Both the position numbers and the translations under genes were made by a program. Under the pieces are notes generated by a model. It did not search any database. It saw only the letters and a program-made list of their open reading frames with translations, and was not told the DNA's origin. Positions 27,291-48,396 of a stretch of DNA of 64,000 nucleotides are shown one piece after another. The first letter of the stretch is position 1. Every line of letters begins with the position of its first letter. Origin of the DNA: Kiritimatiellia bacterium (GTDB taxonomy: Bacteria > Verrucomicrobiota > Kiritimatiellia > RFP12 > UBA3636); assembly GCA_017481725.1 (NCBI GenBank), contig JAFUOX010000061.1, positions 19,467-83,466 of the forward strand. Reading direction: 5' to 3'.

Positions 27291-27861
27291 CTAAAATCGG
27301 CTTTCTCTTTGCATTCCACTGGCGTCTCGTGTTTCGCGTGCAGGAAGGGTATGGAGAAGCGACTTCCAGTCGCTTTGCGTGCGGTAGCACGCTTCAAAAG
27401 TGCGAAAAAGGGACGCTGCGACGCGGAGGACGCAGCGTACGAGATTAGACGCGAGAATGTAGAAAAACCACTCAACTCTACCTAAATTCTTCATTCTTCA
27501 TTCTTCATTTATTATAATGGTGATGAAAAGCGAGAGGAAGCAAAGGGTTATCACCTTGCCACCTCTCGCCCCAGCAACACCGGGCGGCAGAGCCACCCTC
27601 TTCCCCACTGTCAAACTGTCAAACTCGCCCACTGTCAAACTGTCAAACTTTTCAATCCTTTTTTTAAAAATTCCTTGTGCATCACGCTCCGTATCTTAAT
27701 AAACTTCTGTGCGAGCACACTAGTGGATGAGTTTTGCCAAATTGCTTCGAAAGAATAGCAATAGCCAAGGCAAAGCTCATTCCGCTAGTGTTTTTTTTCT
27801 GCGTCCCTTCTTCGCACTTTTAGGCACCACGTGCACCACGCAGGCAGGAGCGCTAGCTTGA
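27291..27861. repeat. GC-rich non-coding island (MITE-like element, copy 2) with inverted core motifs and tandem heptamer/octamer repeats
   Basis: core gtgcgaaaaagggacgc at 27390-27406 and its inverse gcgtcccttcttcgcac at 27801-27817; ATTCTTC x3 at 27486-27508; CTGTCAAA x4 in two blocks at 27607-27648; palindrome gctgcgacgcggaggacgcagc at ~27404. Confidence 0.55.
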
Positions 27862-29916: not shown

Positions 29917-29917
29917 T

Positions 29918-31696
29918 TTATTCCTCCGCCTCTGAGTCGTCGAGTATTATACCTGCTCCAGAGTGCTTCTCGTAAAGCTCTCTATAGCGCCCGTTTTCTA
30001 TCTGCATTAGCTCTTCGTGACTGCCTTGCTCAATAATGGTGCCTTTGTCAAGAAGTATAATTTTATCGGCATTTTTAATTGTGCTTAGGCGGTGTGCCAC
30101 GATAAATGATGTCTTATTGGAAAGAAAGCGATCGAGAGCCTGTTTAATAGCTGATTCGGAGCGACTATCGAGAGAGCTTGTTGCCTCATCCATAATAAGG
30201 ATTGTTGGATTTGCTAGAACTGCGCGTGCGATAGAAATTCGCTGCTTTTGTCCAACGGAAAGCTGCACATCTTTGTCACCAATGACAGACTCATAGCCGC
30301 GAGGGAGTGTCATAATTTCATTATGAATTTCTGCAATCTTTGCTGCGTTAATTACCTCATCCATAGTCGCTGATGGGCGAGCATAGCGGATGTTGTCTGC
30401 TATTGAGGTTGTGAAGAGGAGTGACTCCTGAAGCACAATGCCGAAAAGTGATTTCAGTGAATATTTGCTAATTTCGCGAATATCAACTCCGTCTATTGTG
30501 ATGCTTCCTTCCTTTACGTCCCAAAAACGCATTAGAAGCGAAAGGATAGTGGTTTTTCCGCAGCCTGTTGGACCAACAAGGGCGATTGTTTCTCCTGGTT
30601 TAACGTGAAGATCAAAGCCACAGATGATTGGATGGCCTTCCTCGTATTCAAAATGGATATTATTGAAATCAACCTTACCAGAAACATTTTTGAGGGTAAT
30701 TGGGTTTTCGGCTTCCTTTACCTGTGGCTCTTCCTCGAGAATTTCAAAGAGGCGGTCTGCTGCGATTCGAACATTTTGTAGGCGTTCTGCGAACATGGTG
30801 AAGCGGATAATTGGCCAAAAGAGCATATTTGCATATGCCACGAATGCGGTTACATCACCATAGGTGGTTGAGTTATTAAGAATCATCCCGCATCCAATAA
30901 AAAAGATTGCTGCATGGCCAAATTTTTGGAGTAGCTGTGCATTGAAGCTATTGTCTGAGGAGGCTTTCCAACCGTTATGTGCATAAATGGAAGCCGTATT
31001 TGTTTCTTCAGAGAAAACAATGTTCTCGCGTTCTTCTGCGCTATAGGTTTTGACGGTTAGGTTCGCTGAAAGGCGGTTTTGTACTCCAGAGGCAAGCCTA
31101 TCTCCGGCTGTGCGGAAATTTTTCCAAGCCATGCGAATACGCTTCCTTAGGATGATAAAGTTTAGATAAAATAGCGATAAAACAATTATCAGTATTATGG
31201 AAAGGCGCCAGTTGATATAAAATGCTGCTGTGATTGCAAAGGTAGAGCAGAACAAATCTGCAATAATTTGAATTGAACCAGCATCAAGGATGAATAGCAG
31301 GGCAGTGGAGTCACCCATGATTCTATTGATAAGCTTACCGGTGCTATTTTTGCTGAAATAGCCCATGTGGAGATTGAGAAGATGCTTATATATGTCCATC
31401 TTTAGCTTCAAAATGAAGCGCTGACCAACAATGGAAACCCCCATCGACTGGATAAAACCGAGTAAAGCATTACATGTTGGTATTGCAATTGCAACGCAGG
31501 CAATGCCGAAAAGCTGCTCGCGTTTGTTTGCTCCAATAATATCGTTAATGATATATCGAGAAATAAGAGGAGGCAATGCTTGTATGATGGAAATTACTAG
31601 CATCAAAAGAATAAGCAAAAAGAGCTGCTTCTTAAATGGAAGCAGTAGCTTAAAGATTTTTGACATTGTGCCTTTTTTTGGGGCATTAGTGTCCAT
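29918..31696 (-). CDS. ABC transporter permease/ATP-binding protein (exporter half-transporter)
   Basis: 592 aa; GPTGCGKTT, LSVGQKQR; 1-bp gap to the downstream ABC gene (likely heterodimer). Confidence 0.85.
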   Translation of the reverse strand: MDTNAPKKGTMSKIFKLLLPFKKQLFLLILLMLVISIIQALPPLISRYIINDIIGANKREQLFGIACVAIAIPTCNALLGFIQSMGVSIVGQRFILKLKMDIYKHLLNLHMGYFSKNSTGKLINRIMGDSTALLFILDAGSIQIIADLFCSTFAITAAFYINWRLSIILIIVLSLFYLNFIILRKRIRMAWKNFRTAGDRLASGVQNRLSANLTVKTYSAEERENIVFSEETNTASIYAHNGWKASSDNSFNAQLLQKFGHAAIFFIGCGMILNNSTTYGDVTAFVAYANMLFWPIIRFTMFAERLQNVRIAADRLFEILEEEPQVKEAENPITLKNVSGKVDFNNIHFEYEEGHPIICGFDLHVKPGETIALVGPTGCGKTTILSLLMRFWDVKEGSITIDGVDIREISKYSLKSLFGIVLQESLLFTTSIADNIRYARPSATMDEVINAAKIAEIHNEIMTLPRGYESVIGDKDVQLSVGQKQRISIARAVLANPTILIMDEATSSLDSRSESAIKQALDRFLSNKTSFIVAHRLSTIKNADKIILLDKGTIIEQGSHEELMQIENGRYRELYEKHSGAGIILDDSEAEE

Positions 31697-31755
31697 AGCT
31701 TATTCTAAATCCGTTTGGTTGCTAAAATAGTTTATGTGTGGCCCAGCAAAAAAAA

Positions 31756-32793
31756 TTATGGCTCAAATATAAACTTCCAGAGTGATTGCTTACCGAGTAG
31801 TAGCTTTGCTCTTGCAGAGGTTCCTGGGCTTACTCCGTAGCTCTCTGGATCAAATTCGCAATATGCTACGCGATAATAGCTATCAGCAGTGCCTTCAACT
31901 ACTCCTCGCAAATATGTGACCTTTCCATCAAACTTGTGAGGGATAATTCCACCGTAGGTGCCGAGTGTGAGGCGTAGAGGAGTGCCAACCTCAACCTTTT
32001 CTGCATATTTTTCAGGGATGCGTAGCTTTATGCAGTTTGCTTCTCCTTGGAAAATCTCGTAAAGCACCATATCTGTACGGAGCATTTCTCCAACATAGAA
32101 GCTGTAGCGAGTGACAGTTCCATCAATAGGAGCACTTATTGTGCGCTTCTTTAGCTCTGCTTGAGCTCTAGTTAGAGCCTCGCGCTGTGATTCCAGCTCC
32201 TGCTCAAGTACAGCAATCTGCTTATCTTCTAGGGTTAGATCCTTTGCTTTTGTAACGCGTAGAAATTCCTCGCACTTTTCAACTGCAAAGGTGTCCTCTG
32301 AAAGGCGGCGTCCTGAAGCCAATCCCTTTTCATATAGGCTTTTTGTTAGGGCAAGCTGTTCGTTTGCGTATTTAAGCTCTAGCTCTGCAAGCTTGATTGC
32401 GTCTGCATGTGCACGCTTGTTTTCAGTGGCTGTTGCCTTGCGCAGGGTTAGCTCTGCCTCTGCCTTGCTAACAAGCTTGCTTGCTTCATCAACGGCTGCC
32501 TGCTCAGCATCGGATTCAAGGTTTACCATTGGATCGCCTTTTTTCACAGTGTCGCCTGAGGAAACAAGAATTTCCGCCACGCGTCCACTTGTAGAGGCTC
32601 GAACATCTGCATATTCGGCTGTTGTGATATATCCTGTTGCAACTGCCTTGTAAGGAACTCTAATTAAAAAGCCGAGCGAAATGATAACTATCAATGATAG
32701 CGAAGTATAAAGCATTATTTTGTTTCTTCTTCTCACGTGCTCGTGCCTTGTTTCTGGTAAAACTCCACCAGCTTCAGTTCTGACGTTTCCCAT
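31756..32793 (-). CDS. HlyD-family membrane fusion (periplasmic adaptor) protein
   Basis: 345 aa; N-terminal TM, long coiled-coil, C-terminal beta domain. Confidence 0.75.
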   Translation of the reverse strand: MGNVRTEAGGVLPETRHEHVRRRNKIMLYTSLSLIVIISLGFLIRVPYKAVATGYITTAEYADVRASTSGRVAEILVSSGDTVKKGDPMVNLESDAEQAAVDEASKLVSKAEAELTLRKATATENKRAHADAIKLAELELKYANEQLALTKSLYEKGLASGRRLSEDTFAVEKCEEFLRVTKAKDLTLEDKQIAVLEQELESQREALTRAQAELKKRTISAPIDGTVTRYSFYVGEMLRTDMVLYEIFQGEANCIKLRIPEKYAEKVEVGTPLRLTLGTYGGIIPHKFDGKVTYLRGVVEGTADSYYRVAYCEFDPESYGVSPGTSARAKLLLGKQSLWKFIFEP

Positions 32794-32828
32794 ACATTAC
32801 CTCATTAAAAATAGTAGTTAAAATAAAA

Positions 32829-33644
32829 TTACTTATTGCTCTTCATTTTGTTGATGGTGATAAGGTCCTTTGCCAATGTGCGAAGACCCTCTGCCTCGTC
32901 TGTATAACGCTTCATGCACTCATTACATTTGTCGCAAGAGGTTTCATAGCAATTTCTATGTACGCGAGAAGGGTACATCTGTTTAAAGGCTTCGTAGCAT
33001 TCATCTGAGCAGAAGCAAAAGCGCTCTTGGGTTGAACCAAATGCTGCGTGTACAAGGTGGAATCCTTCGTTCTCAGGGGAGGTTTCTTTTCCGCACCATC
33101 CACAAGGAAGTGATAGGCGTTCTCTGATTGCACTTCTGCGGGCGGTGATTTCATTTTCACCCCATAGGTATTCAACCCATTCAACTGCAGATGCCGGCAC
33201 GCGAGCAATTACAACCTCATTTTTTACAACTAGCACCTCTCCATTTTTGAGAACGTGGCAGCGTTCACCAAAAATTCCTTCGGTACGATTTTTTGTGTGA
33301 ACGCAAATGGAGCCTTGCCTTGGAACAGAGTAGGAGTGCCAGCCGCATTCTTCGCAGATAGAAACAAATACGTTTTGATTAAGGGAAGCACCGCATTTTG
33401 GGCAGCGACCCTGCTGGAGTACGTGTAAACGTGAGACTGACTGAACCGCCGCAGAACGGATTTTGCGCTCTGCCTCTTCCTTGATTTTTGTTGTTGTGGT
33501 TTCCTCGTTGACAAATTCAAGGTCATTACGAAGCTTGTCGGTATCCTCATCAAATAGCTCAGAATCCTGGAGCTGATTTACAATGTCAGGAGTGAGTGGA
33601 GTTGCAGATTTTTTAGAAAATAGGTGTGAAAATGGGGTTTTCAT
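32829..33644 (-). CDS. cysteine-rich hypothetical protein (multiple CxxC zinc-ribbon-like pairs)
   Basis: 271 aa; CPKCG..CEECG, CGWCG, CDKCNEC; embedded between the TolC-like and HlyD genes. Confidence 0.5.
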   Translation of the reverse strand: MKTPFSHLFSKKSATPLTPDIVNQLQDSELFDEDTDKLRNDLEFVNEETTTTKIKEEAERKIRSAAVQSVSRLHVLQQGRCPKCGASLNQNVFVSICEECGWHSYSVPRQGSICVHTKNRTEGIFGERCHVLKNGEVLVVKNEVVIARVPASAVEWVEYLWGENEITARRSAIRERLSLPCGWCGKETSPENEGFHLVHAAFGSTQERFCFCSDECYEAFKQMYPSRVHRNCYETSCDKCNECMKRYTDEAEGLRTLAKDLITINKMKSNK

Positions 33645-33687
33645 ATTGCTCCTTTTTTCTTGAAGCTAAAAAGTCCTCAGGCAGATT

Positions 33688-35235
33688 TTATTCTTCAGGT
33701 GGGTCTTTTATAATAATATTATTTAGAGGTGAATCACTAGAAAAGGTGTCGTATATGTATGGGGAAACACCAGAGGCTCTACAAAGCTCATTTGCAGAGA
33801 GAATTACCTCAAGTGCAATACTGTGCTTTCTACGAACTGCCATAGTTAAATCTTGCTGTGCATCAAGCACATTGCGTGAGGTTCCATCACCAATAGAAAA
33901 ACGCTCATTTTCGGAGGCTAGCACCTTTTGAGCTTGCTCCAATGCCTTTGTGGCGAGAGCAAGGCGATTGCATGCGCTTGAGAAAGCAAGCTCAGCACGT
34001 TGGATGCGTAGCTCGCAAGCAATGGCCGTTGCATTCGCATCTAGGGTTTGGGTTTGAATATCCTGCTTAGCCTTGCGAAGCTTGTATTTAGAGCCATCTG
34101 AGCCAAGAGGAGTGGAGAATACAAGGCTCACATTGTAGCCAAATTCGTTTTCAAGAGAGTTGTCGTCATCCCAGCCGGCACCTACTTTTAAATCAAGCTT
34201 TGAGCGTTCCTGCTGGACAACGCTTTCGTGGGCGTGTGTTGCTGCTGCGATATTTGCTTCAGCAATTAAAAGCTCAGGCAATGAAGCGGATAGTCGGATG
34301 CCTTTAAGAGTAACAGGCGATATTTTGCTAATCTCTTCAGCCCAATTTGAGAAAAAACTAGAAACCTCTGCTGCGGGGATATTTACCAAATCAAGCTGAT
34401 TAGTTATGCCGATTGCTTCAAGCAAAATGCGCTGCTGTAGCTGGATGTTTTGTTCTGCCTCATGCAGCTCTTCCTTTCGGATAGCTACCTCATATTCTGC
34501 AGGATAAACCTGATATTGAGCAATGTCCTTAAGAGCTGCACGGTGAGATGATTCTTCAACAAGCTTTTCTGCTCTAGTTACAGCATTTTTGATTTCCTCT
34601 GCGTCGATAATTGCAAAGCTGTATCTAGCGAAAGCATCAAATGTGCTTGCATAAGAATCAAGTAGCTTGAGCTTTTTTTCTGCTATTGTTTTTAGGTGAG
34701 CTGCATTAAGGGCATTTATTTTGCTCTTGTGAATAGCAAAGCCAGAATCCTGCATTAAAGGGATGCGTATGTAACCACCTGCTGTTGAGCTATCCTCCGC
34801 ATTATCCTCGTTTGTGAAAATTTGGCGAACACCCAAGCCTCCATATACGCCACCGGCGATTGGGGATTCTACGCCAACGTGGTATGCAGTTGCAGAGCCA
34901 TCATTGATAGAGGAAAAACCTGTTGCTGGTATGGAGTGTGGTGCTTCGCCATTTTCAACAGCAGCATTAAGGCTTGGTGTGTAGAATGCTGCTTTTTCGC
35001 CAGCTAGCTCAAGCCATGCTGAATGAGCTTTTGAAATAGAGCTTTTAAGAGATGGATTTGATGTAAGCATTTGCTTTAATATTAAATCAAGCTTACTTGC
35101 TTCTGGGACAAGACCAAGAAGCTTACTTGCGGACTGATCTGCCGGAGCACTTTGAGGAGTGGTGGCTTGTTCAGCAATAACGCATGTCGACAAGAAACAC
35201 AGAGCCACGAGTACGGGCGTTAGTTTCGTTTTCAT
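33688..35235 (-). CDS. TolC-like outer membrane efflux protein
   Basis: 515 aa; signal peptide, helix-rich repeats; first gene of the OMP-x-HlyD-ABC-ABC operon. Confidence 0.6.
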   Translation of the reverse strand: MKTKLTPVLVALCFLSTCVIAEQATTPQSAPADQSASKLLGLVPEASKLDLILKQMLTSNPSLKSSISKAHSAWLELAGEKAAFYTPSLNAAVENGEAPHSIPATGFSSINDGSATAYHVGVESPIAGGVYGGLGVRQIFTNEDNAEDSSTAGGYIRIPLMQDSGFAIHKSKINALNAAHLKTIAEKKLKLLDSYASTFDAFARYSFAIIDAEEIKNAVTRAEKLVEESSHRAALKDIAQYQVYPAEYEVAIRKEELHEAEQNIQLQQRILLEAIGITNQLDLVNIPAAEVSSFFSNWAEEISKISPVTLKGIRLSASLPELLIAEANIAAATHAHESVVQQERSKLDLKVGAGWDDDNSLENEFGYNVSLVFSTPLGSDGSKYKLRKAKQDIQTQTLDANATAIACELRIQRAELAFSSACNRLALATKALEQAQKVLASENERFSIGDGTSRNVLDAQQDLTMAVRRKHSIALEVILSANELCRASGVSPYIYDTFSSDSPLNNIIIKDPPEE

Positions 35236-35408
35236 TGTATTCTGCTTTTGTGTTTACGAACAAAATATGGTTAATTAAACAATAGCAATATTTTACCTTC
35301 TTAATGAAACACAATTCAAGCAAAAATGAATAAGTTTTGCGTTAAATTTTAAAAAGATGCAAAAATTTTGAATATAGATGCACTTGCATGGTGACTAGAG
35401 GTGTGAAA

Positions 35409-35447
35409 GTGTTCCATAACCACATATGCAAAGTGTCATGGAACACG
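35409..35447. promoter_or_regulatory. 9-bp inverted repeat GTGTTCCAT-N20-ATGGAACAC upstream of the array (possible operator)
   Basis: perfect inverted repeat seen in sequence. Confidence 0.3.
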
Positions 35448-35546
35448 CAAAGGTTGCTGGGTTGCAGGGCTTGTGCGGTGGGGTATTTGCGTAATGGTGC
35501 TTATAATCGAGATATGGGTGTATTATTTTTTATAAAGATAATTTGC

Positions 35547-35574
35547 TTGCATATTTTTTAATATATTGTATAAT
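35547..35574 (+). promoter_or_regulatory. sigma70-like promoter (TTGCAT-16-TGnTATAAT) for the RhuM-like array
   Basis: TTGCAT at 35547, extended -10 tgTATAAT at 35567-35574; about 30 bp upstream of the AAGGAG RBS. Confidence 0.4.
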
Positions 35575-35606
35575 TATGGTGCTTTTATAAATCACAAGGA
35601 GTTGCT

Positions 35607-36476
35607 ATGGAACATAAAGAGAAGAAAAACGAAATTGTAATATATCAGCCCAATGAAACTATCCGCTTGGAGGTATGCTTAGAGAATGACACCGTGTGGC
35701 TGACGCAAACACAACTATGTAACTTGTTTGGTGTTGTTAAGTCAAATATTTCATCTATTCTTAAGAATATATTTGAAACTAATGAGTTGGATTCTTCGGC
35801 AATTGTTCAAAAAAATCGAACAGTTCAACAAGAGTCTGGACGTTTTGTCTCTCGCAATATTGAACGTTTTTCATGTGGATTTATGTTTGTCCTGTCAAAA
35901 GAAGAGTTGTGTGAACTGGTCACAAATTGTGACCGGTTTAAAAATTTAAAGCATTCCACGGTCTATCCAAAAGCATTCACAGAGCAAGGAGTTGCTATTA
36001 ATCATGAAGAGAAGAAAAACAAAATTGTAATATACCAGCCAGATGAAACTATACGGATAGAGGTTGTTCTTCAAAATGAAATAGTGTGGCTAAATCAGAT
36101 AAAGTTGTCTGCCTTATTTGATGTAGATAGAAGTGTTATAAATAGGCATATACGTAATATTTACAATAGTGGTGAACTGCATGAATCAGCAACTTGTGTA
36201 AAAATTGCACAAGTTCAAAATGAGGGAGCAAGAATAGTTTCCCGTGTAATTCCATTTTTTAATCTTGATGTTATAATAGCGGTTGGATATAGGGTAAATT
36301 CTGCAAGGGCAACACAATTTCGTATTTGGGCAACATCAGTTTTGAGAGAGCATTTGTTATGTGGTTACTCTTATAATATTCATCTAAAACATTTGGAAAA
36401 TAAAATGGATGAGAAATTTGCGGCTCACGATAAGGATATATCTTATCTCAAAGAAAAAGTAGATTTCTTTATATAA
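35607..36476 (+). CDS. RhuM-family (virulence protein RhuM N-terminal region) paralog 1 with a tandemly duplicated N-domain
   Basis: 289 aa; EIVIYQPNETIRLEV...TVWLTQ motif occurs twice (residues 1-60 and ~133-190); YNLD..(A/I)VGYRVNS..FR(I/R)WAT core; ends KEKVDFFI. Confidence 0.7.
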   Translation: MEHKEKKNEIVIYQPNETIRLEVCLENDTVWLTQTQLCNLFGVVKSNISSILKNIFETNELDSSAIVQKNRTVQQESGRFVSRNIERFSCGFMFVLSKEELCELVTNCDRFKNLKHSTVYPKAFTEQGVAINHEEKKNKIVIYQPDETIRIEVVLQNEIVWLNQIKLSALFDVDRSVINRHIRNIYNSGELHESATCVKIAQVQNEGARIVSRVIPFFNLDVIIAVGYRVNSARATQFRIWATSVLREHLLCGYSYNIHLKHLENKMDEKFAAHDKDISYLKEKVDFFI

Positions 36477-36558
36477 ACACAAACTGCACATATAGATGAA
36501 TTATTCACAAGGAGTTGCTATGAATCACGAAGAGAAGAAAAACGAAATTGTAATATAT
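36455..36558 (+). repeat. conserved cassette junction (3' KEKVDFF codons + taaacacaaactgcacatatagatgaattattcacaAGGAGttgctATGaatca + first ~12 codons), copy 1
   Basis: recurs at 37385-37465 and 37893-37998; partial copies at 35585-35650, 35985-36050 (in-frame, ATG to ATT) and 37795-37830. Confidence 0.8.
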
Positions 36559-37401
36559 CAGCCCAATGAAACTATCCGCTTGGAGGTTTGTCTTCGAGAT
36601 GAAACTGTATGGTTGAATCAAGAGCAAATAGCATCTTTGTTTGGAACTAAAAGACCAGCAATAACCAAACATCTAAAAAATATATACGAAAGCAGGGAAA
36701 TAGATAAGGATAGCACATGTTCCATTTTGGAACACATGGGAAATGCTGGAAAACAAACCTATCGTACATTATATTATAATTTGGATGCTATTCTTTCTGT
36801 TGGCTATAGAGTTAATAGTACAAATGCTACTAAATTTAGAAGATGGGCAACAGAGACATTAAAGGCATATCTACTAAAGGGTTATGTGATTAATACTCAT
36901 CTAAGTCATTTGGAAAATAAAATGGATGAGAAATTTGCGGCTCACGATAAGGATATATCCTATCTCAAAGAAAAAGTAGATTTCTTTGTGCAAACGCAGA
37001 CACCGCCACTCCAGGGCGTATTCTTTGAGGGACAGCTATGGGATGCGTGCTCGTTAGTGGAAAAGCTTATTGCACGAGCAAAAAGCTCAATTTTATTGAT
37101 TGATAATTGGGTTAGCGTAGAAACGCTTGATATGCTCGCAAAAAAGAATAGCGGGGTAGCAGTATCCATAGTTACCTCAAAAAGAGGAAACAAGCTTGCT
37201 CCCTCTGATATTGCTAAATTTAACGCCCAATATCCAATCTTAACGATTAAGGAGAGTGACGCTTTTCATGACCGCTTTCTAATTCTTGATGACAAAGAAA
37301 TATATCTTATCGGAGCATCGCTAAAGGATTTAGGAAAGAAATGCTTTGCCTTTACCAAAATGGATGTCAGTACAATATCTGACATAAAACTGCACATATA
37401 G
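36520..37401 (+). CDS. RhuM-family N-domain fused to a ~150-aa C-terminal domain (paralog 2)
   Basis: ITKHLKNIY, YYNLDAILSVGYRVNSTNATKFRRWAT. The start is moved to the ATG following the AAGGAG RBS; the ORF-track start at 36496 is an upstream in-frame ATG inside the conserved junction. Confidence 0.7.
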   Translation: MNHEEKKNEIVIYQPNETIRLEVCLRDETVWLNQEQIASLFGTKRPAITKHLKNIYESREIDKDSTCSILEHMGNAGKQTYRTLYYNLDAILSVGYRVNSTNATKFRRWATETLKAYLLKGYVINTHLSHLENKMDEKFAAHDKDISYLKEKVDFFVQTQTPPLQGVFFEGQLWDACSLVEKLIARAKSSILLIDNWVSVETLDMLAKKNSGVAVSIVTSKRGNKLAPSDIAKFNAQYPILTIKESDAFHDRFLILDDKEIYLIGASLKDLGKKCFAFTKMDVSTISDIKLHI

Positions 37402-37465
37402 ATGAATTATTCACAAGGAGTTGCTATGAATCATGAAGAGAAGAAAAACGAAATTGTAATATATC
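37385..37465 (+). repeat. conserved cassette junction, copy 2
   Basis: aaactgcacatatagatgaattattcacaaggagttgctatgaatcatgaagagaagaaaaacgaaattgtaatatatcagcc. Confidence 0.8.
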
Positions 37466-37809
37466 AGCCAGATGAAACTATACGAATAGAGGTTAGAGTA
37501 GCTAATGATACGGTTTGGCTTACGCAAAGCCAAATGAGTCTTTTATTTGGTTGCACTGTAAGAAATATTAGATTGCATTTAGAAAAGATATATTCGTGTG
37601 GGGCGTTGGAAACAGATTCAACTAAGAAGGATTTCTTCCTAGTTCGGTTTGAAGGAATAAGGGCAGTTAAAAGAAATATTACTTGTTATAACTTAGATGC
37701 TATTATTTCTGTTGGTTATCGTGTTAATTCTATTTTGGGTGTAAAATTCAGACGCTGGGCTACAGAGGTGTTGCGTAATTATCTTTTAATGAGTTGCTAT
37801 GAAACATAA
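37426..37809 (+). CDS. truncated RhuM-family N-domain paralog 3 (likely recombination remnant)
   Basis: 127 aa from the RBS-proximal ATG; the frame terminates inside a degenerate copy of the junction sequence (gagttgctatgaaacataa). Confidence 0.55.
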   Translation: MNHEEKKNEIVIYQPDETIRIEVRVANDTVWLTQSQMSLLFGCTVRNIRLHLEKIYSCGALETDSTKKDFFLVRFEGIRAVKRNITCYNLDAIISVGYRVNSILGVKFRRWATEVLRNYLLMSCYET

Positions 37810-37892
37810 AGAGAAGAAAAAAGCAATGTGCATTTTTTACACATTCCTTCTTCTGACAAACCTATGATAATCGTATAGAAACCCTTGAGGGG

Positions 37893-37998
37893 AAAGTAGA
37901 TTTCTTTATATAAACACAAACTGCACATATAGATGAATTATTCACAAGGAGAGTTGCTATGAATCATGAAGAGAAGAAAAACGAAATTGTAATATATC
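37893..37998 (+). repeat. conserved cassette junction, copy 3 (with AG insertion in the RBS region)
   Basis: gaaagtagatttctttatataaacacaaactgcacatatagatgaattattcacaaggagagttgctatgaatcatgaagag... Confidence 0.8.
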
Positions 37999-38867
37999 AG
38001 CCCAATGAAACGATACGAATAGAGGTTGTGCTTCAAAATGAAACAGTATGGCTAAATCGGAAACAGATGGCTGAGCTTTTTGGACGTAATGTTAAAACTA
38101 TAGGAAAACATATAAAAAATGCACTGTCTGAAGAGTTGTCTGAGTCATACAATATAGGGGATAGTACAAGCAACAGAAATCCAGTTGTCGCAAATTTTGC
38201 GACAACTGCCACTGACGGTAAAGTTTATAGTGTTGAGTATTATTCTCTTGATGTTGTTTTGTCTGTCGGGTATAGAGTTAAATCAACACAAGGGATTGCC
38301 TTTCGTAGATGGTCAAATGAGGTTTTGAAGTCTTTTTTGATTAATGGGTATATTTATGATTATAAATTTAGCCACTTAGAAGAGCGGATCGATAAACATT
38401 TAGCGGCTCACGATAAGGATATATCCTATCTCAAAGAAAAAGTAGATTTCTTTGTGCAAACTCAGACGCCACCACTCCAGGGCGTATTTTTTGAGGGGCA
38501 GTTATGGGATGCGTGCTCGCTTGTGGAAAAGCTTATTGCACGAGCAAAAAGTTCAATTTTATTGATTGATAGCTGGGTTAGCGTAGAAACACTTGATATG
38601 CTCGCAAAAAAGAATAGCGGGGTAGCAGTATCCATAGTTACCTCAAAGCACGGCAACAAGCTTGCTCCCTCCGATATTGCTAAATTTAATGCTCAATACC
38701 CAACATTAACGATTAAAGAGAGTGCCGCATTTCATGACAGATTCCTAATTCTTGATGACAAAGAAATATACCTTATCGGAGCATCGCTCAAGGATCTCGG
38801 AAAGAAATGCTTTGCCTTTACCAAAATGGATGCCAGTACAATTCCATCCATAAAAGCCCAGATTTAA
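37959..38867 (+). CDS. RhuM-family N-domain fused to a ~150-aa C-terminal domain (paralog 4)
   Basis: 302 aa; C-terminal 150 aa about 93% identical at nucleotide level to paralog 2 (38405-38867 vs 36950-37401). Confidence 0.7.
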   Translation: MNHEEKKNEIVIYQPNETIRIEVVLQNETVWLNRKQMAELFGRNVKTIGKHIKNALSEELSESYNIGDSTSNRNPVVANFATTATDGKVYSVEYYSLDVVLSVGYRVKSTQGIAFRRWSNEVLKSFLINGYIYDYKFSHLEERIDKHLAAHDKDISYLKEKVDFFVQTQTPPLQGVFFEGQLWDACSLVEKLIARAKSSILLIDSWVSVETLDMLAKKNSGVAVSIVTSKHGNKLAPSDIAKFNAQYPTLTIKESAAFHDRFLILDDKEIYLIGASLKDLGKKCFAFTKMDASTIPSIKAQI

Positions 38868-38920
38868 TTTTGTGTAGTGCTGAAACCCGGTAAGTTTATA
38901 TAAATCGAATTTATCGTTTT

Positions 38921-38958
38921 TTGAAAATAAAAAACCCACAGACTCATTGAGCTGTGGG
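38921..38958 (-). terminator. Rho-independent terminator downstream of tRNA-Val (minus strand)
   Basis: cccacagactcattgagctgtggg hairpin; the A-run on the + strand is a T-run on the - strand. Confidence 0.55.
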
Positions 38959-38965
38959 AAAGGGA

Positions 38966-39042
38966 TGGTGGGCGAAGTCGGACTCGAACCAACGACAGGC
39001 TGGGTGTAAACCAGCTACTCTAACCAACTGAGTTACTCGCCC
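38966..39042 (-). tRNA. tRNA-Val (anticodon TAC), CCA encoded
   Basis: minus-strand sequence GGGCGAGTAACTCAGTTGGTTAGAGTAGCTGGTTTACACCCAGCCTGTCGTTGGTTCGAGTCCGACTTCGCCCACCA; cloverleaf with anticodon loop TTTACAC; GTTCGAGTC T-loop. Confidence 0.85.
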
Positions 39043-39434
39043 TTAAAAACGTGTATAAATTTAGCATATCCCGATTTTGAAATCAAGAGAAAAATTAAGA
39101 TTTTTTAAATATTTTTGGTTTTGGATTAATAAGTGTTTGGTAATAAAGTGCTTGTTTGGCGAATTTTTTTTTAAAAAAATAGGGTTTTTATGCTTTGTAC
39201 ATAAGATTAGCCTACATAATGAGTTTTTTGCGTCATATGCATTCTATGTGTGCATCACGCAGATATCCTGACTCCTAGTAAATTTGAGTGCTCATTTAAT
39301 TGTGCAATTTTACCTCTGATGTTCTTATTAAAATATGTTGTATTTTATTTTGGTAATTTGATATACTTAACATAGTAAATTTGGAAACTCAAATATCTAG
39401 AATTCAATAATTTCAGTTAGTTAATGAGGTAATT

Positions 39435-41018
39435 ATGAACAAGATTGCAATTATTCCACAGCCACAAAAGCTTGAGGAGTTGGGCGGTTGTTTTATTTTA
39501 AAAGAGGATGCAACAATTGCATGGAACGGTAATGTTGCAGCAAATCAAGAGGCTGAGTTTTTAGCAGAATATTTACGCCCTGCAACAGGCTTTGCTCTTC
39601 CAGTCGTTGAGGGAGAAGGGACAATCACTTTCTCTTTGCCTTCTCAGCCAGAAGCAAATGATATGGGCTTTTTTCCAGAGGGCTATAAGCTTGTAGCTAA
39701 GGATGGGAAAGTAGCAATTACAGGAGAGTCTGCAGCAGCACTTGGTCGTGCAATTCAGACAATCCGTCAGCTATTCCCTGCAGAGATATATGCAACAACC
39801 AAGCAAAATGTTGTTTGGGAATTTCCAGAGGTTGTAATAGAAGATAAGCCACAGGTTCAGTGGCGTGGTATGCACCTTGATGTTTCACGTCATTTTTCTC
39901 CAAAGGATGAGATTTTTCGCTTTATTGAATTACTTGCTCAGCACAAATTTTCAATTTTTCATTGGCATTTGACAGATGACCAGGGTTGGCGTATAGAAAT
40001 TAAAAAGTATCCTAAGCTAACTGAGGTTGGTGCTTGGCGAAAGGAGACACTAATAGGTCATGATCATAGTGATAGACCACATAGATTTGATGGTAAGCCA
40101 CATGGAGGCTTCTATACCCAAGAGGAGATAAAAGAGGTTGTTGCTTTTGCTGCACGTCGCCACATTATAATTATTCCTGAGATTAATACACCAGGCCATG
40201 CTCAAGCAATGATTGCTGCATATCCAGAGTTTGGTATGGCAACTCTAACAACTCCAGAGGTACGCACAAGATGGCATATTTCACATCATGTGCTAAATAT
40301 GGAGGATGCAACAGTTGAGGCTTGTAAGGATATTTGGCGCGAGGTATTTGCTCTTTTCCCAAGCAAATATTGTCATATTGGAGGTGATGAGTGTCCTTCA
40401 AATATGTGGGATGACTCTAAGCACACCTATGAACTCATGATAAAGCGTGGCATTACAGGAGATGCACGTAATCTTCAATGCTGGTATACTGGAGAACTAA
40501 ATAAACTCTTCAAAGAGCATGGTAGGAGAATGATTGGCTGGCATGAAATTACTCATGGTGATTTTAATGACACAACAGCAATCCCTGCATGGTGGTGGGG
40601 TGGCTATGATTATGTTAAATTGCTAGAGCGTGGCTTTAATATTATTCAGTGTAGCAATCAATATTTGTATTTTGATTATGCTCAATGTGAGCCAATCGCA
40701 GAGGAGCCATTAGCAATTAATAATGATCCTAATGGAAGGGCATATACAACAGAGCATGTATATTCATTTGATTTGTATCCAAGCTTTTTAAATGAAAAAC
40801 AAAAATCTCAGATTCTTGGCTGTCAGGCACAACTATGGCGTGAGTATATCCCAACCTTTAAGCATCTAGAGTATATGGCTTTCCCACGCGCAACAGCATT
40901 TTCTGAGGTGCTATGGACAGAGAAGCCTCGCCGCAATTATCGTTGCTTCTTAAAGCGCCTAAAGGCACAGCGTGCTCGCTTTGATGTTCAAGGAGTAAAT
41001 GCTTGCGATAGACCATAA
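39435..41018 (+). CDS. beta-N-acetylhexosaminidase (GH20)
   Basis: 527 aa; HWHLTDDQGWRIEIKKYP, IIPEINTPGHA, HIGGDEC catalytic-region motifs. Confidence 0.85.
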   Translation: MNKIAIIPQPQKLEELGGCFILKEDATIAWNGNVAANQEAEFLAEYLRPATGFALPVVEGEGTITFSLPSQPEANDMGFFPEGYKLVAKDGKVAITGESAAALGRAIQTIRQLFPAEIYATTKQNVVWEFPEVVIEDKPQVQWRGMHLDVSRHFSPKDEIFRFIELLAQHKFSIFHWHLTDDQGWRIEIKKYPKLTEVGAWRKETLIGHDHSDRPHRFDGKPHGGFYTQEEIKEVVAFAARRHIIIIPEINTPGHAQAMIAAYPEFGMATLTTPEVRTRWHISHHVLNMEDATVEACKDIWREVFALFPSKYCHIGGDECPSNMWDDSKHTYELMIKRGITGDARNLQCWYTGELNKLFKEHGRRMIGWHEITHGDFNDTTAIPAWWWGGYDYVKLLERGFNIIQCSNQYLYFDYAQCEPIAEEPLAINNDPNGRAYTTEHVYSFDLYPSFLNEKQKSQILGCQAQLWREYIPTFKHLEYMAFPRATAFSEVLWTEKPRRNYRCFLKRLKAQRARFDVQGVNACDRP

Positions 41019-41079
41019 TCGGGTTGAGACATAAATATTGTTCTTTACATTAGTAAAGTGTTCGTGATAAATTTAAAGC

Positions 41080-41256
41080 ATGAATGGATCGTTAACAAAA
41101 ATTGATAAAAGCAACAAATCAGGTCAAGCAATGCTTGAATATATTATTGTGTTTGTATCTTTTTTTGCAGTAATAGTAGTATTAGCGATTCTCTTATATG
41201 CACTCAGACAAAATGGAGTGCGAGTTTTAGATCTCGTGTCTTCAGAATATCCATAA
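41080..41256 (+). CDS. Flp-like prepilin (58 aa), not in ORF track
   Basis: KSGQAMLEYIIVFVSFFAVIVVLAILLY: G/xxxxEY Flp cleavage motif plus hydrophobic helix. Confidence 0.5.
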   Translation: MNGSLTKIDKSNKSGQAMLEYIIVFVSFFAVIVVLAILLYALRQNGVRVLDLVSSEYP

Positions 41257-41271
41257 GAAAGGAAGCTCTAA

Positions 41272-41505
41272 ATGAAAAACAATAAAAAACGCTCTGGTCA
41301 GGCAATGGTTGAGTATATCATCATCGTTGTTCTTATCGCTATTGCAGCAATTGCAGTATTCGGTTACTTTGGTGGTGCAATCACAAAGAAAACAGCTGGT
41401 GCAACCTCTGCTCTTGATGCAGATTTAGGCTCTGAGGCAGCTTCTGTTGCTGGAGAGAGCACAGCTGATACACTAAAGAATCTGGACGAAGACGGTAATT
41501 ACTAG
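41272..41505 (+). CDS. Flp family type IVb pilin
   Basis: 77 aa; KRSGQAMVEYIIIVVLIAIAAIAVFGYF; RBS aaggaag upstream. Confidence 0.65.
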   Translation: MKNNKKRSGQAMVEYIIIVVLIAIAAIAVFGYFGGAITKKTAGATSALDADLGSEAASVAGESTADTLKNLDEDGNY

Positions 41506-41555
41506 GATCTAGTTATTCTTTGTAAATTAGGATAAATAGACCCAGCAATTTTGCA

Positions 41556-42215
41556 ATGTCTAGGTGTTTAATCCTTAAAAACAAACAATCTCAATCAGGA
41601 CAAGCAATGTTAGAATCAATTATTGTGATTCTAACAGTTTGCCTTGTCCTTTTTGGGCTTTTGCAAGTGGCAATAGTTTATACAGGACAAGAGGTGTTGC
41701 ATCATGCGGCAGCTCGTGCAGCTCGTGCAAGATCTGTTGGGTTTAATGATTGGATGGTTGAAAAGGCAGTGCGTGTGGCTTCCATTCCTAATGCTGGAGA
41801 GCGTCTTGAGCCAATAGTGCTTAATCATGTTAATAGTGGAATACCTGCAAATGCAACACCTGGGGAGGCACTGGATATAGCCTTTTCGAGAAGACCAGTA
41901 ATGACATCTCCGGCAGCAGCAATAGAATCTGCCAGAGTGCCAGAATATCTTGCTTCAGAGAATTATGGGCGCTCAACATACATTTTAAATTATGAGGAAT
42001 GGGAGCGTGGCTCTATCACCTACGATATAGATGAATCCTTTTCTGAGCATGGAACAATCCATGCAGAGGTGCAGCAGATGTTTCCACTAAAAATGCCGTT
42101 TGCTGGATATTTTTATCCGTTTAGCAGTAGACGCGATGAAAATAATATTCCCCGTATAAGAATGAAAGGGGAAGCCGTTTCTGGGAATCATTCCGCTTTA
42201 TATCTTGAAAAATAG
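41556..42215 (+). CDS. TadE-like pseudopilin
   Basis: 219 aa; N-terminal SGQAMLESIIVILTVCLVLFGLLQVAIVYTG. Confidence 0.55.
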   Translation: MSRCLILKNKQSQSGQAMLESIIVILTVCLVLFGLLQVAIVYTGQEVLHHAAARAARARSVGFNDWMVEKAVRVASIPNAGERLEPIVLNHVNSGIPANATPGEALDIAFSRRPVMTSPAAAIESARVPEYLASENYGRSTYILNYEEWERGSITYDIDESFSEHGTIHAEVQQMFPLKMPFAGYFYPFSSRRDENNIPRIRMKGEAVSGNHSALYLEK

Positions 42216-42218
42216 TTT

Positions 42219-43640
42219 ATGATATTGAACATTAAGCAAAGTAAAAATATACAGAATCGATCAGGTCAAGCAGTATTGTTTATTGTTATGGCTATTTGTA
42301 TTCTTGCTTTTGCAATGCTTTGGATGGCAGATGTACATAGAATAATTTTTATTAAAGATCGTAGCCAAAATGCAGGAGATGCTGCGGCTCTTGCGGGTGC
42401 TCGCTGGCAAGCTACTGCAATGAATTTTGTTGGTGAATTAAATCTAATGCATGCACTTGCATCAAGTATGGGTGATGAGGTGTCTGTAGATGTAATAACA
42501 AATACACAAAAGCGAGTGTGCTTTGTGGGTCCAATGACAGGTGTTGCAGCAGCACAGCAGGCAGCAAAGCTTAATGGTATTCATGTTAATGATGATTTTA
42601 CTGCATTTATGAAAGAGCATGCTGATAAAATAGAAAATGAGTATGCTACAATTATGAATGGGAATAGTGCTCTTCCAGAGCCTTGGCCAGGTGCATGGTA
42701 TGAATATGCAGATATGGTTCGTGCAATTGCTGATGATGGTGTGGCTGCAGGCGTGGATAATGCTATTTTTTATACTGATCCTATGGGAGCCCATCCACTT
42801 CTGCAAATTGAGTTTTATGAGGCTATTCGAGGAAAAAATTGGTGTTGGTTTCATTTTTATGGGATGCATCTGCTCGAAGAATATGATGGTTACACATGGT
42901 GGCCAGCATTGCCTGAGCAGGAAGAGTTGCCATTGTCTTCTCCAGAATATTTAGCACTTCATTTGCGTCCAATAGAGTTGCGTTTGAGTTCGATTGTGAA
43001 AGAGGGACATCCTTCTATAGAGGCAGCAGAAGAGATAGGTATTGAAATTACTCCTCGAGAATTAGATGATACGCAAGATGAAGTACTAGAAAATTGGTTC
43101 TTTTACAACTCTGGCAGGTGGGGTAGTTGGGAAACAATGCTAGACTCTTCATTCCCAATAGAAGGTGATGTACGAGATGAATATAACTACCAAGGGGCAG
43201 ATTCTGTTATGCGTGTGGAGGCTTCCTCTCACCGACTTATGGAGGATACCAAAGCACATGATACCATTATATGGACAGGTGCAGCAAAGCCTTTTGGGTA
43301 TCTGGATGGAGAAGATAATAAGGCGACACCAAATTCTGTTGGTTTAGTTTTGCCTGCATTCCGTTCTGTAAACTTAATACCTATCGATGCGTCATCAGCA
43401 CCAGATGGAGGAAGCTTCAATATGAAGTGGCGCCGCCATCGGGAATATCATTTGCCAATATATATGGATGCAGGTCCATCTGCTTTATTCCCTAACTGTA
43501 TGTATTGTAGGCAATTAGCCACATGGGAAATTCCAGAATTTAGAATAAGTGGAGTAGAGTGGCTTGCTTCAAATGATTGGAAGTGTGTGATTTCTCCTCC
43601 TGGTGGTGGCCCTGGTGGTGGTACTCGCCATGCACATTAA
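42219..43640 (+). CDS. TadG/Tad-domain-like pilus-associated protein
   Basis: 473 aa; N-terminal RSGQAVLFIVMAICILAFAMLWMADV pseudopilin-like segment, then a large soluble domain. Confidence 0.5.
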   Translation: MILNIKQSKNIQNRSGQAVLFIVMAICILAFAMLWMADVHRIIFIKDRSQNAGDAAALAGARWQATAMNFVGELNLMHALASSMGDEVSVDVITNTQKRVCFVGPMTGVAAAQQAAKLNGIHVNDDFTAFMKEHADKIENEYATIMNGNSALPEPWPGAWYEYADMVRAIADDGVAAGVDNAIFYTDPMGAHPLLQIEFYEAIRGKNWCWFHFYGMHLLEEYDGYTWWPALPEQEELPLSSPEYLALHLRPIELRLSSIVKEGHPSIEAAEEIGIEITPRELDDTQDEVLENWFFYNSGRWGSWETMLDSSFPIEGDVRDEYNYQGADSVMRVEASSHRLMEDTKAHDTIIWTGAAKPFGYLDGEDNKATPNSVGLVLPAFRSVNLIPIDASSAPDGGSFNMKWRRHREYHLPIYMDAGPSALFPNCMYCRQLATWEIPEFRISGVEWLASNDWKCVISPPGGGPGGGTRHAH

Positions 43641-44088
43641 CATAAATTTGGTAGCTATTTATCTTGAGTTATATGCTGATTTACGGCATACGGATGCTTG
43701 AGAATTGTACGTGATGGTTCTGGTTCTATCGTAGGATTGGGACTTTGTTCCCAATTACAAATCATGATGCACTTTGATTTCGCAAGAATATTTGCCAAAT
43801 CAGTTGTTGTGTAAAATTTCAAATGCACCCCAATAAGGGGTGCAATTAAATAGTAGTTGCAATATTCATTGAAATAGGGTACTATTATTGGGAGTTTTTG
43901 TGATAGTCATTTCCTTGTGCTATTCAAGTCTATTAGTTTGGTGGCTAGAATAGGTAGAAAAATTATGTTGTTTTTCTTATGGGAAAACTTTTACATAAAC
44001 TATTTTACACTTTAATAATGGGCCTATGGGTAATTGTTTACTTTATTTTAATAAAATAAGCAGTTAATAATGTTAAGATAATTAAATT

Positions 44089-45060
44089 ATGAAAAGTTCA
44101 AATAATCCATCTAATAAACGAAATAGTAACTTTAAAGATTATATAAGAATTGCTCGTCTTGATCATTGGATTAAAAATCTATTTATCCTTCCTGGTGTCT
44201 TCTCTGCAATGGTTATTACGAAGTCAAAATGGGAGGATTTTAATTTAGGTTTGGTTATCTTAGCTCTGTTAGCAACTAGTTTTGTTGCTTCAGCGAACTA
44301 TGTTATTAATGAATGGCTTGATGCTAAATTTGATAAATTTCACCCTGTAAAAAAGAATCGTCCAGTTGTTGTTGCAGATCTTAAAGTGCAATATGTGTTA
44401 GTGGAGTATGCCGTATTTGCAATAGCAGGAATAGTTTTGTCATGTTTTATAAATAAGGTCTTTGCAATAATGGCTTTATGGCTGTTGATAATGGGGATTA
44501 TTTATAATGTAAAACCATTTCGTACTAAAGATGTTCCTTTTATAGATGTTCTTTCAGAATCTATAAACAATATGATTCGCTTGTTAATGGGATGGTTTGT
44601 CATTGCATCAACAACGATACCTCCATGCAGTATCATCATAGGATACTGGATGTGTGGCGCTTTTTTAATGGCAACAAAGAGATTTGCAGAGTATCGTATG
44701 ATTGGTGATCCTGAGCGAGCTGGGCTGTATAGAAAATCATTTAAACTTTATACAGAATCATCATTGTTAGTTTCAGCAATGTGTTATGCACTTATAGCAA
44801 CATTTTTGATTGGAGTTTTCTTAATTAAATACAAAATTGAACTATTGATTTCCATTCCATTTTTGATTGCTTTATTCGGTAAATATATTGCCATATCATA
44901 TAAAGAAGATTCTGCAGCCCAAAAGCCAGAAAAACTTTATAGAGAAAAAGGACTTATGTTGCTTACTTTAATATTTATTGTTGCTCTTATTGTTGCTAGC
45001 TTTATACAGCTTCCATGGCTTCAGGTATTTACAAGCACAGATTTTATCTCCTTAAGGTAA
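44089..45060 (+). CDS. UbiA-family prenyltransferase, decaprenyl-phosphate phosphoribosyltransferase (DPPR synthase)-like
   Basis: 323 aa; IARLDHWIKNLFILPGVF and NEWLDAKFDKFHPVKKNRPVV (NDxxDxxxD-type and HPVK..RP motifs recalled from Rv3806c-type enzymes); about 8 TM helices. Confidence 0.7.
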   Translation: MKSSNNPSNKRNSNFKDYIRIARLDHWIKNLFILPGVFSAMVITKSKWEDFNLGLVILALLATSFVASANYVINEWLDAKFDKFHPVKKNRPVVVADLKVQYVLVEYAVFAIAGIVLSCFINKVFAIMALWLLIMGIIYNVKPFRTKDVPFIDVLSESINNMIRLLMGWFVIASTTIPPCSIIIGYWMCGAFLMATKRFAEYRMIGDPERAGLYRKSFKLYTESSLLVSAMCYALIATFLIGVFLIKYKIELLISIPFLIALFGKYIAISYKEDSAAQKPEKLYREKGLMLLTLIFIVALIVASFIQLPWLQVFTSTDFISLR

Positions 45061-45099
45061 TATATTGGGTTGGGAGTTTGGGCTTAAAAGGATAGAAAA

Positions 45100-47370: not shown

Positions 47371-47394
47371 CAATATTAAAAAAAACGGTAAAAA

Positions 47395-47931: not shown

Positions 47932-48396
47932 CAAAGAGCTATTTGCTCGCTAGTACATCTAATCTAAATTAGGTAATAACTAAAAGTGAATAACGAATAA
48001 CACTGGTTAAGATGTGCTTTGAAGCGACAGCTTCTTATAATAGAGTGGTGTGCGTGCATTAGCAATACGCACACGCTTCTACATTTTTTATTCTCTGTTC
48101 GTTATTCTTTTTCACGAATAAAAGCTAGTTTTTGAATTAAGCCCATTATACAAGTCATCGTACCCAGCCATAATTTAGTAAATCTCTCGCATTATTTGTC
48201 ATAATATAAGTCTTTGCGAACTTTGTGATTTTTGCTGGAGAACAACAACATTTTTTTGAGAGTGTCGTTATTATCCACAAATAAAAATAAAATTTTATTA
48301 ATTGATTAAATCATAGATTTAAGGTAAAATTATTCCATTATTTTTTTAGGCATCCTTTTGCCTTTTTTATCAATCCATCAAAAATTGGACTTTCTT

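Follow-up and report, generated by a model that had tools for sequence, protein, structure and literature searches.

A strain-variable tandem array of RhuM-N/ORF6N genes with a phospholipase D-fold C-domain in gut Kiritimatiellia, probably diversified by homologous recombination

The locus described here lies on a 64-kb stretch of DNA from a Kiritimatiellia bacterium (the window; coordinates are positions within it unless another locus, such as L003, L004, L022 or L043, is named). It consists of an array of head-to-tail, plus-strand open reading frames (ORFs) that spans positions 35607–38867. The locus is probably a hypervariable, operon-like tandem array of single-gene candidate anti-phage genes, which belong to the RhuM-N/ORF6N–phospholipase D (PLD) subtype of PDC-S05 and have been diversified by homologous recombination. 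A sequence-only reading of the window had pointed to a head-to-tail array with a reiterated junction near a tRNA-Val gene, and this array is real (35.6–38.9 kb). The window itself is core chromosome, with genes for FtsZ, FtsA, FabF, FabD and EPSP synthase, and the order at the site is TolC-like gene, array, tRNA-Val and GH20. The guanine-plus-cytosine (GC) content is 33–36% in the array versus 41–45% in the flanks, which fits an accessory or defence origin.

Each unit of the array can be divided into four parts: a conserved junction and leader of about 110 bp; a variable N-terminal core of about 320 bp, which is predicted to bind DNA (Bro-N/ORF6N/RhuM-N class); a conserved helical linker of 80–100 bp; and a conserved C-domain of about 440 bp with a PLD fold. 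The array had been counted as four and a half genes that comprise an N-domain only. Instead, there are seven cassette-derived segments, namely an e remnant, an ORF6N' remnant, b without its C-domain, c in full, a truncated, an f remnant and d in full; c and d correspond to the genes g3 and g5, and these two intact copies both bear the PLD-fold C-domain.

The start of the unit was followed with a 55-nucleotide (nt) probe that includes the ribosome-binding site (RBS) and the start codon as well as the first 14 codons. With no more than 3 mismatches allowed, there are five plus-strand matches, starting at 35596, 35986, 36509, 37415 and 37948, where 0 are expected from shuffled sequence. A degenerate sixth copy is located at 37788, and no further copies exist beyond the array in the 64-kb window; a scan of JGI metagenomes with a 27-nt piece of the junction returned 0 matches. 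The full junction, aaactgcacatatagatgaattattcacaaggag(ag)ttgctATG, is found ahead of g3, g4 and g5, with exact repeats of 47–59 bp. The common upstream sequence that had been ascribed to every gene is present in full before these three, and g1 and g2 are preceded by its final 14–17 nt only.

Paralogues were compared within and between two haplotypes of the site. Nucleotide identity is 84–97% in the leader (23 codons), drops to 48–58% in the N core (36–47% for the amino acid sequence), and is 67–100% in the linker and 89–94% in the C-domain. Where residues are identical, the same codon is used in 81–100% of cases in the C-domain and in most comparisons of the leader and the linker (about 75% in a few), and in only 39–63% in the N core. 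This synonymous-codon match in the leader, linker and C-domain demonstrates conservation at the level of the DNA and not of the protein alone. Thus, both nucleotide identities and codon use bear out the mosaic of conserved ends and variable middles that had been proposed. In addition, the gene with an ORF6N-type N-domain has the same leader, MNHEEKKNEIVI, and the same junction DNA. Orthologous N cores are 99–100% identical between haplotypes, with flanks that are about 98% identical.

The same mosaic is present in tandem or clustered paralogues of other Kiritimatiellia metagenome-assembled genomes. Locus L003 has four genes, one of which is of the ORF6N type; comparison of this gene to its RhuM-N-type neighbour gives 93% identity over the 45-nt junction/leader and 96.5% nucleotide identity in the C-domain. 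Four paralogues with a PLD-type C-domain are found in L004, together with a canonical RhuM gene. At L022, the C-domains of a RhuM-N gene and an ORF6N gene are 94% identical at the nucleotide level, and those of the other copies 66–77%.

Evidence for recombination also comes from strains. The site was recovered in many metagenome assemblies by looking up the flanking proteins, and it was found as four haplotypes in conspecific gut Kiritimatiellia, with flanks that are 98–100% identical. Haplotype H1 (L049 and L050) reads ORF6N-C, a-C, b-C, where C is the C-domain, and H2 (L043; 23 contigs) reads ORF6N-C, a-C, b-truncated, c-C. In H3 (L051, GCA_045589975.1) the order is ORF6N-C, g-C, b-C, and in H4, which is the haplotype of the window (6 contigs), it is an e/ORF6N'/b fusion, c-C, a-truncated, the f remnant and d-C. 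Between H1 and H2, identity is 100.000% over 6501 bp and 99.95% over 7511 bp. Their sole difference is a 519-bp indel, which has a 97-bp perfect repeat at its bounds, in the linkers of b and c, and turns b-truncated plus c-C into b-C. H3 and H1 are 85–100% identical in 60-nt windows save for a block of about 400 nt at 36–61%, which corresponds exactly to the N core and linker of gene 2 (a versus g).

The C-domains group by position and not by the core that they carry. Terminal copies are 93–94% identical to one another and internal copies 91–95%, and between the groups identity is 86–90%. The terminal C-domain bears N core b, c or d depending on the haplotype (d in g5 of the window, c in H2 and b in H3), and N core c is attached to the terminal C-domain in H2 and to an internal-type C-domain in the window. 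The variable segment starts within gene 1 and ends within the linker of the last gene. The comparison of strains that had been suggested as a check revealed that cassette number, identity, order and intactness all vary at one site, with the breakpoints in conserved segments.

As the conserved parts are all direct repeats, ordinary homologous recombination would be able to delete, duplicate, fuse and replace N cores. The partners could be copies on a single chromosome or on sister chromosomes, or DNA taken up from other strains. Recombination would act at the leader/junction, the linker and the C-domain, through unequal exchange, through deletion or through gene conversion by an imported donor. 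Suitable repeats are present in the window: 53 bp of linker at 36390–36442 recur exactly at 36907–36959 and would be a substrate to fuse cassette b with the C-domain of g3, and the C-domain at 36973–37401 pairs with that at 38439–38867 (89% nucleotide identity, with a longest exact run of 56 bp). The outcome would be strain-specific sets of presumed target-recognition domains on a common effector scaffold, accompanied by truncated "orphan" cassettes, and this turnover of cassettes would be adaptive.

The proteins encoded by these genes belong to a catalogued family. Pfam PF13310 (Virulence_RhuM) matches all four ORFs at 65–73 bits (gathering score, 33.7 bits), which bears out the RhuM family to which the N-domain had been assigned. 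In every copy, the alignment covers profile positions 1–67 of 252 only, and the canonical RhuM protein in L004 aligns to positions 1–249, so that the remainder of the canonical RhuM domain is indeed missing throughout, as had been noted. What had been overlooked is that, in g3 and g5, the KDISYLKEKVDFF linker is followed by a conserved C-domain of about 145 amino acids (aa). Three genes had been thought to end in this same segment, but KDISYLKEKVDFF terminates g2 only; the f remnant has a similar end (GKVDFFI and a stop codon), and g3 and g5 have the segment internally, as a linker. Positions 3–277 of the PADLOC PDC-S05 model PDLC04879 (285 positions) align with the full length of g3 (E 7e-109) and of g5 (E 3e-101), and the ORF6N-type gene G1 of L043 is a full-length match to PDC-S05 via PDLC04869 (E 6e-106). 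The view that this was not a described system needs to be divided: the gene family is the PADLOC candidate PDC-S05, with both the RhuM-N and the ORF6N architectures modelled, but the array organisation was not found in the literature searched. In NCBIfam there was a weak partial match to VPA1262_N_dom, below the cut-off, and nothing else, and PHROGs returned weak anti-repressor matches to the N-domain and nothing stronger.

An AlphaFold model of g5, which was built from 53 homologues and has a mean pLDDT (predicted local distance difference test) of 83, comprises a beta-rich N-domain with a helix-turn-helix (residues 9–106), a long helix (110–161) and an alpha/beta C-domain (176–301). The plan of an intact gene is an N-domain of the RhuM-N or ORF6N DNA-binding type, a long helix and a C-domain with the phospholipase D fold of Nuc. 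This fold is supported by profile and fold searches, and the PDB profile search gave a match to Nuc (1byr) in which HDR is aligned with HDK. Across the 53 homologues the motif HDRFLxxD(x)7GASxK does not vary, and HDRF..D(x)7GASxK is also kept in 21 distant loci from Fusobacteria, Spirochaetes, Firmicutes and other phyla. Relative to the canonical HxK(x)4D(x)6GSxN, the histidine and aspartate are kept, lysine is replaced by arginine and asparagine by lysine, and one residue is inserted. Nuclease activity of the C-domain is plausible; the domain would be an active phosphodiesterase that works as a dimer, and the N cores would set DNA or target specificity.

In the relatives, neighbouring genes encode a Type III restriction enzyme, a NERD protein, an Eco57I-like methyltransferase, a Tsp45I-like enzyme, a canonical RhuM protein and PD-Lambda-5, which is a defence-island context. 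In E. coli, one PDC-S05 representative lowered the plating of T7 and T5 by a factor of about 1000 and gave protection against T4 as well (bioRxiv 10.1101/2024.09.26.614923). On the canonical RhuM C-terminal half, which had been called Fic-like, the literature states only that RhuM-like domains are often fused to DOC, and RhuM-like proteins were earlier proposed to be toxins in restriction-modification loci (PMC3710099). Together, PDC-S05 membership, the neighbourhood, the phage protection in the preprint and the earlier proposal point to a defence function for the array, although none of it comes from an experiment on the PLD subtype.

A number of points weigh against the interpretation of the locus as a recombining array of anti-phage genes. 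The HKD motif is non-canonical (R for K and K for N). In the Foldseek search, the best full-length matches are to two non-catalytic proteins, TrmBL2 (E 5e-7, with about 285 columns aligned) and TrmB; because of this, nuclease activity and even a defence function are putative. The description of the PDC-S05 member that was tested against phage mentions a RhuM domain only, and not the PLD subtype (10.1101/2024.09.26.614923). Five of the seven cassettes in the window are remnants, with c and d being intact, and a mostly decayed array also fits simple birth-and-death with no selected "reservoir" role. The haplotype data all come from metagenome assemblies. Each arrangement is stable within its haplotype (6 contigs of H4 and 23 of H2), and no sign of high-frequency switching was found among these contigs. 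Finally, the H1/H2 difference could be due to collapse of the 97-bp perfect repeat by the assembler, a possibility that is countered by the presence of b-C in the independently diverged H3.

In a further-reaching proposal, the array is a selected, RecA-driven, cassette-switching immune locus. Here, cassettes b, f, a and e would act as a standing reservoir, and recombination in the linker (about 100 bp) or the junction would join a new recognition domain to the PLD effector, so that a clone could alter or widen its anti-phage specificity on an epidemiological time scale. A hint in this direction comes from H1 and H2, which are 100% identical apart from their indel. We regard the proposal as tentative and on balance doubtful. 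If true, the array would be the equivalent, among defence genes, of Rhs orphan-toxin activation or pilE/pilS variation.

The resemblance to TrmBL2 and TrmB raises a different question, which is whether the array is a set of DNA-binding regulators or chromatin proteins, with the PLD-like domain serving in ligand binding or dimerisation. The departures from the HKD consensus and the weak anti-repressor matches of the N-domain in PHROGs agree with this idea, as does the rank of these two proteins in the Foldseek search. The proteins share with TrmB and TrmBL2 a helix-turn-helix domain, a long helix and a PLD-like domain, but sequence identity is 13–16% and the DNA-binding domain is of another type. 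Furthermore, the array proteins match PDC-S05 over their full length, one member of which protects E. coli from phage (10.1101/2024.09.26.614923), and the relatives reside in restriction and defence neighbourhoods. The set of His, Arg, Asp, Ser and Lys is invariant across phyla and occupies the PLD active-site positions, and such strict conservation of an active-site-like motif sets the array apart from TrmB and TrmBL2. Fast cassette turnover and low GC are likewise typical of defence genes. A purely regulatory role is consequently unlikely.

Even less probable is that the locus arose by plain tandem duplication, divergence and decay, with the conserved ends reflecting purifying selection on the protein and no exchange of cassettes. 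Such a history would account for the truncation or fusion of 5 of the 7 segments in the window and for the stability of each haplotype over many contigs, and the leader residues N-x-I-V-x-Y-Q-P are kept at the protein level across species. It does not account for synonymous sites, which are well conserved in the leader, linker and C-domain and near saturation in the core. Nor does it explain how three different N cores came to be on one orthologous terminal C-domain, how a single N core was cleanly replaced between H1 and H3, or why the ORF6N-type gene has the common leader and junction DNA.

The proximity of the tRNA had suggested a classic island insertion point. The tRNA-Val(TAC) gene was located by ARAGORN at 38966–39042 on the minus strand and keeps its place in every haplotype checked; from its 3' end to the stop codon of g5 there are 98 bp, which agrees with the roughly 100 bp reported. 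This distance and the lower GC of the array relative to its flanks are what would be expected of a genomic island that an integrase had placed at the tRNA-Val 3' end. However, the 25-nt tRNA 3' end has no second copy in the window with 3 or fewer mismatches, and there are no exact repeats of the tRNA region of at least 11 nt in 25000–38900 or 39100–52000, that is, within 14 kb on the left or 13 kb on the right. As had been noted, no integrase was found: neither an integrase nor another recombinase is present in the Pfam-annotated gene tables within 10 kb on each side, or among ten integrase-sized ORFs elsewhere in the window. Arrays at 22 related loci in other genomes have no nearby tRNA, and the bounds of the variable segment are in gene 1 and in the linker of the last gene, and not at the tRNA. 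Island insertion is thus very improbable, and the tRNA-Val is a neighbour with no demonstrable part in the mechanism.

A programmed, recombinase-driven shufflon or phase-variation system, like invertible hsdS loci, is equally hard to credit. Conserved flanks around variable cores do resemble the shuffling of hsdS target-recognition domains, and RhuM genes are statistically enriched beside inverting hsdS loci (PMC9881135). Yet the cassette repeats in the array are all direct, and the sole inverted match is a 27-nt hairpin with a 12-bp stem inside g5. There is no invertase or integrase nearby, and each arrangement is stable over many assemblies. Recombinational shuffling, as first proposed, is supported by the haplotype breakpoints in conserved segments, and nothing points to a programmed mechanism.

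Least probable of all is a metagenome assembly artefact caused by mis-joined repeats. The locus is indeed repeat-rich, and some contigs break at the array edges, with L047 stopping 411 bp beyond the start of the TolC-like gene and L048 starting 161 bp ahead of GH20. However, the window's longest exact repeats measure 47–59 bp and so fall below both the read length and the k=141 implied by the contig name k141_1057728, which makes mis-assembly of H4 unlikely. Contigs from different studies independently yielded the arrangement of the window, at 99.93% identity, and H3 and H4 hold unique cassettes that mis-joining cannot create. An apparent frameshift in gene 2 of L045 is a run of N in the scaffold and not a mutation. 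An empty site or a sister-species locus was sought through GH20 homologues and none was found; the closest homologue (85% identity) is on a 5-kb contig that is broken 161 bp upstream of GH20, and the next are at 52%.

The individual cassettes, all on the plus strand, can now be described from left to right. The upstream region (35544–35606) includes the junction core cacAAGGAGttgct, with the RBS, and forms the left edge of the variable segment; other haplotypes are 98% homologous from the left flank into about 39 nt of gene 1. A TATAAT at 35571–35576 may serve as a promoter, although a consensus sigma-70 scan left it unflagged and found fewer sites than in shuffled sequence.

The first two genes form a merged ORF (35607–36476, 289 aa). 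Part 1 of g1 (35607–35843) is the first approximately 79 codons of cassette e, which is of the RhuM-N type and truncated; a full-length e+C gene with an N core 93% identical to e exists in P0047, and a similar N type in L022 r1. Part 2 (35844–35996) is the ORF6N-type remnant, which spans aa 80–130 and ends in AFTEQGVA. Residues 80–130 match Pfam ORF6N (PF10543) at 45.9 bits (gathering, 27.8) over profile positions 31–81 of 86, against 107 bits over positions 2–86 for the intact ORF6N-type paralogue in L043. The AFTEQGVA codons, caaggagttgctat, have 14 nt in common with the inter-gene junction, and this overlap is likely to be a microhomology deletion joint.

Next, g2 (35997–36476) is cassette b, with an N-domain and linker but without a C-domain, and its product ends in KEKVDFFI. 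Its start codon is ATT and not ATG, and it is fused in frame to g1. The N core has 100% nucleotide identity to G3 of L043; cassette b is joined to a full C-domain in H1 and H3, and a full-length b is found in P0026. Junction J1 (36456–36519) follows, and consists of the end of the linker, the stop codon and aaactgcacatatagatgaattattcacaaggagttgct. Of its sequence, 59 bp are an exact repeat of 37893–37951 and 47 bp of 37387–37433.

The intact gene g3 (36520–37401) comprises cassette c, the linker and an "internal" PLD-fold C-domain, and encodes 293 aa when counted from the conserved ATG. Its N core is 99% identical to that of G4 in L043, and its C-domain groups with those in internal positions. 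It is separated from g4 by junction J2 (37387–37425). Gene g4 (37426–37809, 127 aa) is cassette a, truncated after LRNYLL, with neither linker nor C-domain; its N core is 99% identical in nucleotide sequence to G2 of L043, which is intact at 295 aa.

The heavily deleted remnant of cassette f (37788–37925) retains pieces of leader, core and linker in three frames and ends in GKVDFFI. Its three-frame translation reads VAMKHKEKKK, SNVHFLHIPSSDKPMI and IETLEGKVDFFI followed by a stop, which can be compared to ESNVQIMHIPSSDKPIKLY in gene d of L003. Junction J3 (37893–37958), ahead of g5, has a 2-nt insertion in the RBS region (aaggagAGttgct). The intact gene g5 (37959–38867, 302 aa) comprises cassette d, the linker and a "terminal" PLD-fold C-domain. 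Between it and the tRNA, directly after the tRNA 3' end, is a stem-loop with a T-run on the minus strand (38930–38965; cccacag...ctgtggg, flanked by A/T runs). The scan left it unflagged, but it is likely to be a terminator between the tRNA and the array.

The C-less cassettes have a feature in common. A linker-stop-junction module (VDFFI and a stop codon, then acacaaactgcacatatag...) is located at 36456–36519, at 37893–37958 and at about 6487–6552 of L043. It is 76–79% identical over 34 nt to the normal linker-to-C-domain sequence (VDFFVQTQTPP) and looks to have been derived from this through deletion of the entire C-domain. As the module follows two different cassettes (b and f), the C-less cassettes appear to be a propagated module type and not independent accidents. 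Separately, the hairpin in cassette d of g5 is a palindrome at 38182–38208 with a perfect 12-bp stem, CAGTTGTCGCAA-att-TTGCGACAACTG, within the codons for PVVANFATT. In the orthologous cassette of another species (L003, about position 5152) the stem is intact and the loop differs, and L002 has one mismatch; the palindrome could reflect chance plus amino-acid constraint, or be a functional DNA or RNA element.

Additional features were observed in related loci and elsewhere in the window. In L004, genes for NERD and Zn-ribbon proteins (7055–7834 and 8928–9332) are interleaved and duplicated with the RhuM-N-PLD paralogues, which suggests a two-gene repeating module in that genome. In L022, positions 10551–11105 hold a deletion derivative (184 aa) with a RhuM-N-type core joined directly to the middle of the PLD-like C-domain, a further decay or recombination product of such arrays. 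Directly downstream of GH20 in the window (41080–43640) are two Flp-type pilin-like ORFs of 58 and 77 aa with the motif GQAM(L/V)EYIII, followed by Tad-related genes; a 473-aa product in this region has a weak Pfam Tad match. A second low-GC stretch (43500–45000, 31–34%) is situated between the Tad-like gene and a UbiA-family gene and may be a further small region of accessory or regulatory nature. At the right end of the otherwise housekeeping window, a 410-aa ORF (61905–63137) has AAA_14 and DUF4143.

The gene family and its two architectures are already known as catalogued candidates. The proteins resemble PDC-S05 and RhuM in their full-length PDC-S05 matches, in an N region common to canonical RhuM proteins and in the restriction and defence neighbourhoods of their relatives, but here a PLD-fold domain takes the place of the RhuM Pfam positions beyond 67. 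PDC-S05 is catalogued as a single-gene candidate, and here its members form a tandem array that probably recombines and that includes orphan cassettes. Nothing of this kind was found in the literature searched on PDC-S05, RhuM and ORF6N in defence, a weak negative as coverage was incomplete. Within that coverage, the organisation of the array with its reiterated junction, the C-less "orphan" N cassettes and the strain-specific repertoires were not found described.

Other systems offer partial parallels. The hsdS genes of Type I restriction-modification systems, including phase-variable ones, also have variable recognition modules between conserved recombining segments, truncated spare copies and strain-specific repertoires. 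The array differs in having no HsdS homology, repeats that are direct and not inverted, and no site-specific recombinase, and its changes are deletions, fusions and replacements in place of reversible inversions. In Rhs/CdiA polymorphic toxins, a full-length gene is accompanied by tandem truncated orphan cassettes with a short conserved junction, and homologous recombination fuses the orphan module to the body. The H2-to-H1 event in the array is of this orphan-fusion type. Here, however, the variable module is N-terminal and DNA-binding, the conserved body is C-terminal, there is no Rhs/CdiA homology and there are no immunity genes, and the proteins are presumably cytoplasmic. Unlike the PLD nucleases and restriction enzymes Nuc, NucT, BfiI, NgoAVII and SauUSI, the array proteins have the motif HxR(x)4D(x)7GASxK instead of HxK(x)4D(x)6GSxN, lack an adjacent methyltransferase gene and have an N-terminal DNA-binding domain of the Bro-N/ORF6N class, and their activity is predicted.

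If the N cores are target-recognition modules, then single-gene immune proteins would diversify their specificity without a dedicated recombinase, as hsdS genes and polymorphic toxins do. The function of the widespread RhuM family has been in question since it was first noted in restriction-modification loci, and the locus offers natural chimeras, in which one effector domain is combined with different sensor domains, as material on recognition by RhuM-N and ORF6N domains. The conserved HxR...GASxK variant of the PLD site provides a biochemical lead.

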